A DNA stretch of 64,000 bases from Candidatus Aenigmatarchaeota archaeon (GTDB lineage Archaea; Aenigmatarchaeota; Aenigmatarchaeia; CG10238-14; SpSt-28): assembly GCA_018920305.1 (NCBI GenBank), contig JAHLMO010000002.1, positions 7,580 to 71,579 of the forward strand. The letters are read 5' to 3'. A model generated the notes under the pieces. That model did no database searches and was not told the origin of the DNA. It was given only the letters and a program-made list of their open reading frames with translations. This document shows, in pieces, positions 30,160 through 30,258 of this stretch. The number at the start of each line of letters is the position of its first letter. The stretch's first letter is position 1. The position numbers and the translations under genes are program-made.

Positions 30160-30258
30160 GGGCCCGTAGCTTAGTCTGGTGGAGCGCCCGCCTTATATGG
30201 CACGCTCCAATATACTTAGGAAAGCGGGAGGTCCTGGGTTCAAATCCCAGCGGGCCCA
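30160..30258 (+). tRNA. tRNA-Ile (anticodon UAU) with a 25-nt intron at 37/38 (30198..30222)
   Basis: GGGCCCGTAGCTTAGTCTGGTGGAGCGCCCGC-CTTATA-[TGGCACGCTCCAATATACTTAGGAA]-A-GCGGGAGGTCCTGGGTTCAAATCCCAGCGGGCCCA. Body nearly identical to the tRNA-Ile(GAU) at 20873..20946. Confidence 0.65.

Follow-up and report, generated by a model that had tools for sequence, protein, structure and literature searches.

In archaea, the AUA codon is usually read by a tRNA-Ile(CAU) whose C34 is converted to agmatidine by TiaS. ARMAN-2, -4, and -5 have a tRNA-Ile(UAU), and tRNA-Ile(CAU) and TiaS are absent (Fujishima et al. 2011, PMC3239211). The ARMAN-2 pre-tRNA-Ile(UAU) has a 25-nt intron at 37/38 and is cleaved in vitro by its own EndA (PMC3239211). 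The textbook examples among archaea are Nanoarchaeum equitans and Korarchaeum cryptofilum, which have Ile3(UAU) in place of Ile2(CAU) (PMC8450103, PMC6000648). The EndA enzymes of DPANN archaea are diverse and comprise alpha4, (alpha-beta)2, and epsilon2 forms, many of which have an L3 loop associated with disrupted tRNA genes (PMC5829648). The tRNA-Ile2(UAU) of Mycoplasma mobile carries an unmodified U34, and co-adaptation of IleRS and the ribosome is assumed there (PMC3575796, PMC3895270). Eukaryotic tRNA-Ile(UAU) has pseudouridines at positions 34 and 36, and PUS1 introduces them only while the precursor still has its intron (bioRxiv 10.1101/2025.06.17.660180). Intron-split tRNA-Ile(UAU) is thus already known, having first been described in 2005-2011, and the gene studied here is an ordinary member of this group.

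The window is the whole stretch of DNA that was analysed, 64 kb in length. At 30160..30258 (+) it contains a genuine intron-interrupted tRNA-Ile gene with a UAU anticodon. The gene is a full-length match to Rfam RF00005 (model positions 1-71 of 71), with a complete cloverleaf and a score of 60.3 bits, above the gathering score of 29 bits. The alignment has a 26-nt insertion straight after CUUAUA, which comprises the 25-nt intron and position 38. A structural search pattern gives one match in the window and none in 100 shuffles. The 5' part reads GGGCCCG-UA-GCUU-AGUCUGGUGG-AGCG... CCCGC-CUUAUA, followed by the intron UGGCACGCUCCAAUAUACUUAGGAA, and the 3' part after the intron reads A-GCGGG-AGGUC-CUGGG-UUCAAAU-CCCAG-CGGGCCC-A. 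All four stems are paired perfectly, and CCA is not encoded. The gene is a 60% GC island, with exons of 66% GC, in surrounding DNA of about 24% GC. A T5 run downstream (Table 1) is a possible archaeal oligo-T terminator, of low weight in DNA of 24% GC. Upstream promoter matches were discarded, as the scanner models bacterial sigma-70 and a TATA-like match is weightless in DNA so AT-rich. An earlier note on this DNA had given the same coordinates, loop sequence, and intron length, which RF00005 and direct reading show to be correct. Its further claim, a genomically encoded UAU anticodon in a tRNA split at 37/38, is borne out by RF00005 and by a register test on 117 homologues. The locus as a whole is best explained as a functional gene for an AUA-reading tRNA-Ile3(UAU) of a DPANN archaeon, spliced through a bulge-helix-bulge (BHB) motif, with U34 encoded and TiaS presumably not needed; the probability of this reading is put at about 0.88.

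Table 1. Coordinates of the features discussed (window positions, unless another locus is named)
Feature	Coordinates	Strand	Basis and remarks
5' exon of pre-tRNA-Ile(UAU)	30160..30197	+	RF00005 alignment, direct reading; acceptor 5' strand, D arm, anticodon stem 5' strand CCCGC, loop C32-A37
C32	30192	+	Direct reading
U33	30193	+	Direct reading
Anticodon U34-A35-U36 (TAT in DNA)	30194..30196	+	Direct reading, RF00005; registers k=5, 6, and 7 (loop nt in the 5' exon) all UAU
A37	30197	+	Direct reading
Intron, 25 nt, canonical 37/38 position	30198..30222	+	RF00005 insertion, BHB geometry, 117 homologues
A38	30223	+	Direct reading; 3' stem GCGGG begins at 30224
3' exon	30223..30258	+	A38, anticodon stem 3' strand GCGGG, 5-nt variable loop AGGUC, T arm, acceptor 3' strand, discriminator A73
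Exon strand of central 4-bp BHB helix (C32 U33 U34 A35)	30192..30195	+	Pairs with UAGG 30217..30220: C-G, U.G, U-A, A-U
Intron strand of central 4-bp BHB helix (UAGG)	30217..30220	+	4/4 match 2 nt from intron 3' end in 75% of homologues
Putative 5' splice-site bulge U36 A37 / U(i1)	30196..30198	+	Cut 30197/30198, from BHB symmetry
Putative 3' splice-site bulge A A / A38	30221..30223	+	Cut 30222/30223; abuts anticodon stem
T5 run, possible archaeal oligo-T terminator	30274..30278	+	From sequence; 16 nt downstream of A73
tRNA-Ile(GAU), partner isoacceptor for AUU/AUC	20873..20946	-	ARAGORN, RF00005
tRNA-Lys(UUU) with intron	25717..25824	-	RF00005; 34-nt intron 25753..25786 at 37/38
PP-loop ATPase, 301 aa	46713..47618	+	Best TtuA (146 bits), then TtcA, NcsA; all below equivalog cutoffs
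tRNA-Arg(UCU)	47776..47850		Adjoins PP-loop ATPase 46713..47618
Tandem tRNA-Ile(GAU) and intron-containing tRNA-Ile(UAU) in L155	1744..1906	-	UAU gene 1 nt downstream of GAU gene
Class II UAU tRNA in L001	1444..1533	-	Further class II UAU tRNAs in metagenome loci L177, L194, L157
Class II UAU tRNA in L028	4214..4303	-
Class II UAU tRNA in L086	400..489	+

The BHB motif of the window has a central helix flanked by two 3-nt bulges, UA/U and AA/A. Its h' helix consists of 2 bp, G30199.U30216 and G30200-C30215, which is the commonest h' length among the homologues of the family. The comparative sample comprises the 117 of 121 sequences (window included) in which the 5-bp anticodon stem is perfectly paired. 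In 75% of these 117 homologues, intron positions -6 to -3 (UAAG, UAGG, UGAG, and similar) form all four pairs with C32-U33-U34-A35, and such pairing at any other offset is found in 0-2%. The central helix is at least 3/4 paired at the exact offset in about 95%, and position 38, after two bulge nucleotides, is A in 104/117. Among 108 non-redundant homologues the central helix is 87-94% paired per position, and h' pairs 1 and 2 are 93% and 79% paired, with covariation among G-C, G.U, A-U, C-G, and U-A. The proposed register is 72% paired, versus at most 55% for slid registers, and 0/2000 column shuffles are as high. Judged from sequence, the splice sites would be 30197|30198 and 30222|30223.

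Unconstrained minimum-free-energy (MFE) folding returns neither cloverleaf nor BHB, whether applied to the precursor or to the anticodon arm with the intron. Free-energy folding alone is uninformative, and explicit structure evaluation and comparative counts were therefore used. The cloverleaf alone has -32.5 kcal/mol, with the central helix added -34.0 kcal/mol, and as the strict BHB (hBHBh') -32.2 kcal/mol. The cloverleaf-constrained optimum, in which the anticodon UAUAU pairs with AUAUA of the intron, has -35.1 kcal/mol. All conformers lie within 3 kcal/mol, and the productive fold is therefore treated as enzyme-selected. A fold of the exon-intron junction had been proposed as a check on the gene: the 4-bp helix with two 3-nt bulges is there and is conserved, but the strict BHB, with its h' of just 2 bp, is not the most stable fold. 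Among the matches listed, introns from different DPANN phyla resemble one another in their 5' part, with U/A-G-G/A-C followed often by CG(U/C)U(U/C)C. This similarity exceeds what a 2-bp h' needs and could reflect shared ancestry or an unrecognised constraint.

At least 120 loci in a species-representative genome collection match the search pattern, and among the matches listed 117 are archaeal and three bacterial. An intron-containing UAU tRNA is found in at least 117 archaeal species genomes, at least 90 of them labelled DPANN. The record titles among the matches listed name Woesearchaeota (35), Micrarchaeota/Anstonellales (34), Nanoarchaeota/Nanoarchaeia/Nanobdellati (10), Aenigmatarchaeota (4), Pacearchaeota (4), Undinarchaeota (2), and Iainarchaeum (1), as well as unclassified archaea (12), 'uncultured Methanosarcinales' (13), and 'Methanobacteriota' (2). 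The last two labels may be wrong, as the tRNAs resemble DPANN ones. Intron lengths range from 13 to 40 nt among the matches listed. The earlier note's remark that such a tRNA is reported in only a few lineages does not hold as a statement of rarity, given this number of genomes and their spread over DPANN phyla. An intron-split tRNA-Ile(UAU) is the expected state for DPANN archaea and is characteristic of DPANN as a whole. A literature search found no paper linking DPANN as a whole with the loss of TiaS or agmatidine or with the UAU tRNA. In the literature searched the occurrence is stated only for individual lineages, and its DPANN-wide extent is an incremental point and not a new mechanism.

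The 116 DPANN loci listed include tRNA-Glu(UUC) within 8 kb of tRNA-Ile(UAU) at 38 loci, tRNA-Gly(GCC) at 21, and tRNA-Val(UAC) at 16. This suggests a conserved tRNA cluster around tRNA-Ile(UAU) in many DPANN genomes; the window has no such cluster. Another group of UAU tRNAs is bacterial and belongs to class II. These are 90-92 nt long with a long variable arm, and they come from Acidobacteriota/Blastocatellia MAGs and soil metagenomes (Table 1). A tRNA of Leu/Ser/Tyr shape that reads AUA could be a case of recoding or mistranslation, and the nematode tRNA-Leu(UAU) is a comparison case (bioRxiv 10.1101/2025.06.17.660180).

A metagenome scan that allowed introns of 0-30 nt addresses genes with and without the intron. 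Among the matches listed, 18 sequences with an intron and four without reach an identity of at least 90% to a spliced DPANN tRNA. The other 80 intron-less matches listed do not exceed 89% identity to any DPANN sequence, have CCA encoded in 35 cases, and are taken to be mostly bacterial. The four intron-less genes, L205, L161, L237, and L178, are 93-100% identical to spliced DPANN tRNA-Ile(UAU), and L205 is identical to the spliced Micrarchaeota gene of L039. By their sequences, these four would indicate recent precise loss of the intron. The other tRNAs at the 116 DPANN loci listed number about 31 with an intron and about 120 without, according to ARAGORN, a crude count that gives a base rate of roughly 20%. 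About 80% or more of the sampled DPANN tRNA-Ile(UAU) genes have the intron, versus this rate in neighbouring tRNAs. The intron thus appears strongly enriched in tRNA-Ile(UAU) and, since intron-less archaeal-type UAU genes exist, not obligatory.

The closest relative among the matches listed is on the metagenome contig L155 (30% GC), and its mature tRNA is 96% identical to that of the window. The intron of this relative, 16 nt long, differs in sequence from that of the window and retains h' (G.U, G-C, C-G), 3/4 bp of the central helix, and the AA/A bulge. The tandem GAU-UAU pair of L155 suggests that the UAU gene arose by tandem duplication of tRNA-Ile(GAU); in the window, the two genes are 9 kb apart on opposite strands. 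A duplication origin from tRNA-Ile(GAU) is proposed for Korarchaeum too (PMC6000648). The near-identity to tRNA-Ile(GAU) that the earlier note saw applies to the D arm (19/20 positions) and the anticodon stem (4/5 bp), but the T stem differs at 3/5 bp. Overall identity was dropped as an isotype test, being 81% to tRNA-Ile(GAU) and likewise 81% to tRNA-Ala(UGC). The case for an Ile identity would instead come from the family and from three parts of the tRNA, namely anticodon, D arm, and anticodon stem.

The codon usage of the window was counted in 54 ORFs with 18,048 codons. AUA occurs at 58.6 per 1000 codons as the fourth most used codon, represents 49% of the Ile codons, and outnumbers AUG about sixfold. 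The expectation that AUA would be very frequent in so AT-rich a genome (24% GC) is therefore correct. The meaning of AUA was addressed by aligning the MCM protein of the window with 70 homologues. At the AUA columns the homologues have I in 53%, L in 15%, V in 14%, and M in 1.4%. The AUU columns have I in 59% and M in 1.7%, and the AUG columns have M in 41%. AUA is thus apparently read as Ile and not reassigned, in a test that is only partly independent because the homologues are themselves translated with the standard code. The best homologues of the MCM protein come from a 'Nanoarchaeales' MAG (96% identity) and from numerous Aenigmatarchaeota MAGs (55-85%), which points to a DPANN archaeon (Aenigmatarchaeota or Nanoarchaeota). 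With tRNA-Ile(UAU), a decoder is identified for the fourth most used codon of the genome.

In the proposed route, transcription would give a 99-nt precursor, in which the anticodon loop and the intron would fold into the BHB with C32-A35 paired to UAGG. An archaeal EndA would cut both bulges, and a ligase would join the exons. The scanned ORFs of the window include no EndA. A second intron-containing tRNA is present in the window, tRNA-Lys(UUU), and the splicing machinery is therefore expected in this organism. Its BHB has the same layout as that of tRNA-Ile(UAU), with C32-G, U33-A, U34-A, and U35.G pairs and an AA/A38 bulge, and its intron points to an active tRNA-splicing system. CCA would be added post-transcriptionally, as none is encoded, and the mature tRNA would be 74 nt long with the loop C-U-U-A-U-A-A. 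IleRS would presumably charge this tRNA, which would then read AUA, about half of the Ile codons in a genome of 24% GC. As U34, whose modification state is likewise presumed, is encoded directly, the conversion of C34 to agmatidine by TiaS should not be needed.

A different identity is given by ARAGORN. Without intron mode it reports only three tRNAs in the window and none at 30160..30258. In intron mode it gives identical gene ends and a 25-nt intron at 35/36, with the label tRNA-Ser(tga), i(36,25). A different intron placement had been set beforehand as the finding that would count against UAU; ARAGORN -i does read UGA, but its placement fails on tRNA class and on comparison. Archaeal tRNA-Ser is of class II with a long variable arm, and tRNA-Leu is also of class II. 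The class I body of the gene, with its 5-nt variable loop (AGGUC) and A73, therefore excludes both Ser and Leu. The 32 nt between the anticodon-stem strands allow eight splice registers. Only the registers with 5, 6, or 7 loop nucleotides in the 5' exon yield one and the same anticodon, UAU, in all 117 homologues; this constancy is weightless because UAU was fixed by the search pattern. The register of ARAGORN also reads UGA in 76/117 homologues, but it gives UGU, UGC, UAA, UAG, or UGG in the remaining 41, and thus six different anticodons among orthologues. The evidence on the register that is independent of the search pattern is the 3' end of the intron, as read from the sequences, and the ARAGORN cuts fall inside the conserved 4-bp helix and not in the bulges. 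ARAGORN also labels the one family as Ile(tat) 73 times, Ser(tga) 27 times, and Thr(tgt) six times, a scatter from which its intron placement is concluded to be arbitrary. In intron mode it calls the neighbouring tRNA-Lys(UUU) 'tRNA-Stop(tta)', a label that might be misread as a suppressor tRNA. A naive ARAGORN census of this MAG would thus report AUA as undecodable or invent a stop-suppressor. With the class II arm absent and the anticodon inconstant, a tRNA-Ser(UGA) is ruled out for practical purposes. A decaying duplicate of tRNA-Ile(GAU), in which the insert is not a spliceable intron, is also highly improbable. The strict BHB conformer is not the MFE structure and has an h' of only 2 bp, and the gene resembles tRNA-Ile(GAU) and stands in tandem with it in L155. 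Against decay, the gene has four perfect stems and GC-rich exons in AT-rich DNA, its short h' is the commonest in the family, and it is kept, with covarying stems, in at least 117 species genomes. A pseudogene would also leave the fourth most used codon without a visible decoder.

A functional tRNA-Ile3(UAU) could also coexist with TiaS and a tRNA-Ile2(CAU) elsewhere in the genome, in which case AUA decoding would be redundant and not TiaS-independent. The ORF scan and tRNA search of the 64-kb window found no tiaS, TilS, or CAU tRNA, and none of the five tRNAs found there by ARAGORN and RF00005 has a CAU anticodon. This absence is weak negative evidence, as only 64 kb are visible, and at the AUA frequency counted here an extra decoding capacity could help. 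However, N. equitans, K. cryptofilum, and ARMAN-2/-4/-5, which have tRNA-Ile(UAU), lack TiaS and/or the CAU isoacceptor (PMC3239211, PMC8450103, PMC3575796), and DPANN genomes are strongly reduced. Such coexistence is accordingly regarded as unlikely, at around one chance in five. TiaS and tRNA-Ile(CAU) are probably absent from the rest of the genome, and the TiaS independence of the tRNA-Ile3(UAU) is likely, mainly on the precedent of ARMAN, N. equitans, and K. cryptofilum.

The retention of the 37/38 intron in most DPANN tRNA-Ile(UAU) genes might be explained by a modification of the anticodon on the intron-containing precursor, which would stop U34 from misreading AUG, on the model of PUS1 and pseudouridines 34 and 36 in eukaryotes. 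This proposal is considered quite unlikely, and its standing was lowered because intron-less relatives exist. If it were true, DPANN archaea and eukaryotes would share an intron-dependent AUA decoding, by ancestry or convergence, that is distinct from agmatidine.

The other ORFs of the window include archaeal MCM, TgtA, Rad50/Mre11, SMC/ScpA, aRF1, ArgRS, AspRS, and SufBCDS. The PP-loop ATPase beside tRNA-Arg(UCU) was considered as TilS-like and rejected, as its TilS N-domain match of 56 bits is below the cutoff of 93.6 and it is TtuA/TtcA/NcsA-like. It is a putative tRNA thiolase; if it is NcsA-like, its targets could include U34 in tRNAs like Lys(UUU). A 362-aa ORF at 187..1275 (-) matches the B12-dependent ribonucleotide reductase only at profile positions 4-170 (the N-terminal ATP-cone) and 467-568 (C-terminal). 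Its length is far below the 600-1700 aa of these enzymes, and a remnant or a split gene is possible. SMC (33305..35758, +) has 817 aa versus about 1165 in the profile, and Rad50 (26564..28909, -) has 781 aa versus about 880, both with matches in separate head stretches. This suggests that the coiled coils are shortened, which would suit the reduced genome of a DPANN archaeon. The region 56001..64000 has a GC content of 29-30%, versus 23-26% elsewhere in the window. It holds the aRF1 gene and a 986-aa ORF (58338..61298) with weak Filamin/MG2-like matches only.

When compared to known systems, the gene of the window would share with M. mobile the reading of AUA through an encoded UAU, with neither a lysidine-type nor an agmatidine-type enzyme needed, in a genome that is reduced and AT-rich (PMC3575796). 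In contrast, the tRNA-Ile2(UAU) of M. mobile is bacterial and intron-less. Eukaryotic tRNA-Ile(UAU) also has UAU and an almost always retained 37/38 intron, with the anticodon paired to the intron (bioRxiv 10.1101/2025.06.17.660180; PMC3895270). The likeness of the window to the PUS1 system is in geometry only, and the archaeal-type intron-less genes L205, L161, L237, and L178 argue against a strict intron dependence of the eukaryotic kind. The K. cryptofilum gene has an intron, and its best match is its own tRNA-Ile(GAU), as in the window and L155. For N. equitans and K. cryptofilum, however, the absence of Ile2(CAU)/TiaS is known from complete genomes, whereas the window represents 64 kb of a genome. 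The closest case is ARMAN-2 (Candidatus Micrarchaeum acidiphilum), which is also a DPANN archaeon and has UAU with a single 37/38 intron of 25 nt, as in the window. ARMAN-2 belongs to the Micrarchaeota, whereas the host of the window is Aenigmatarchaeota/Nanoarchaeota-like. Its motif is described as a strict hBHBh', whereas in the window h' has the bare minimum of pairs (G.U, G-C) and another fold exceeds the strict conformer slightly in stability. The ARMAN-2 arrangement is interpreted as replacing TiaS and tRNA-Ile(CAU) (PMC3239211).
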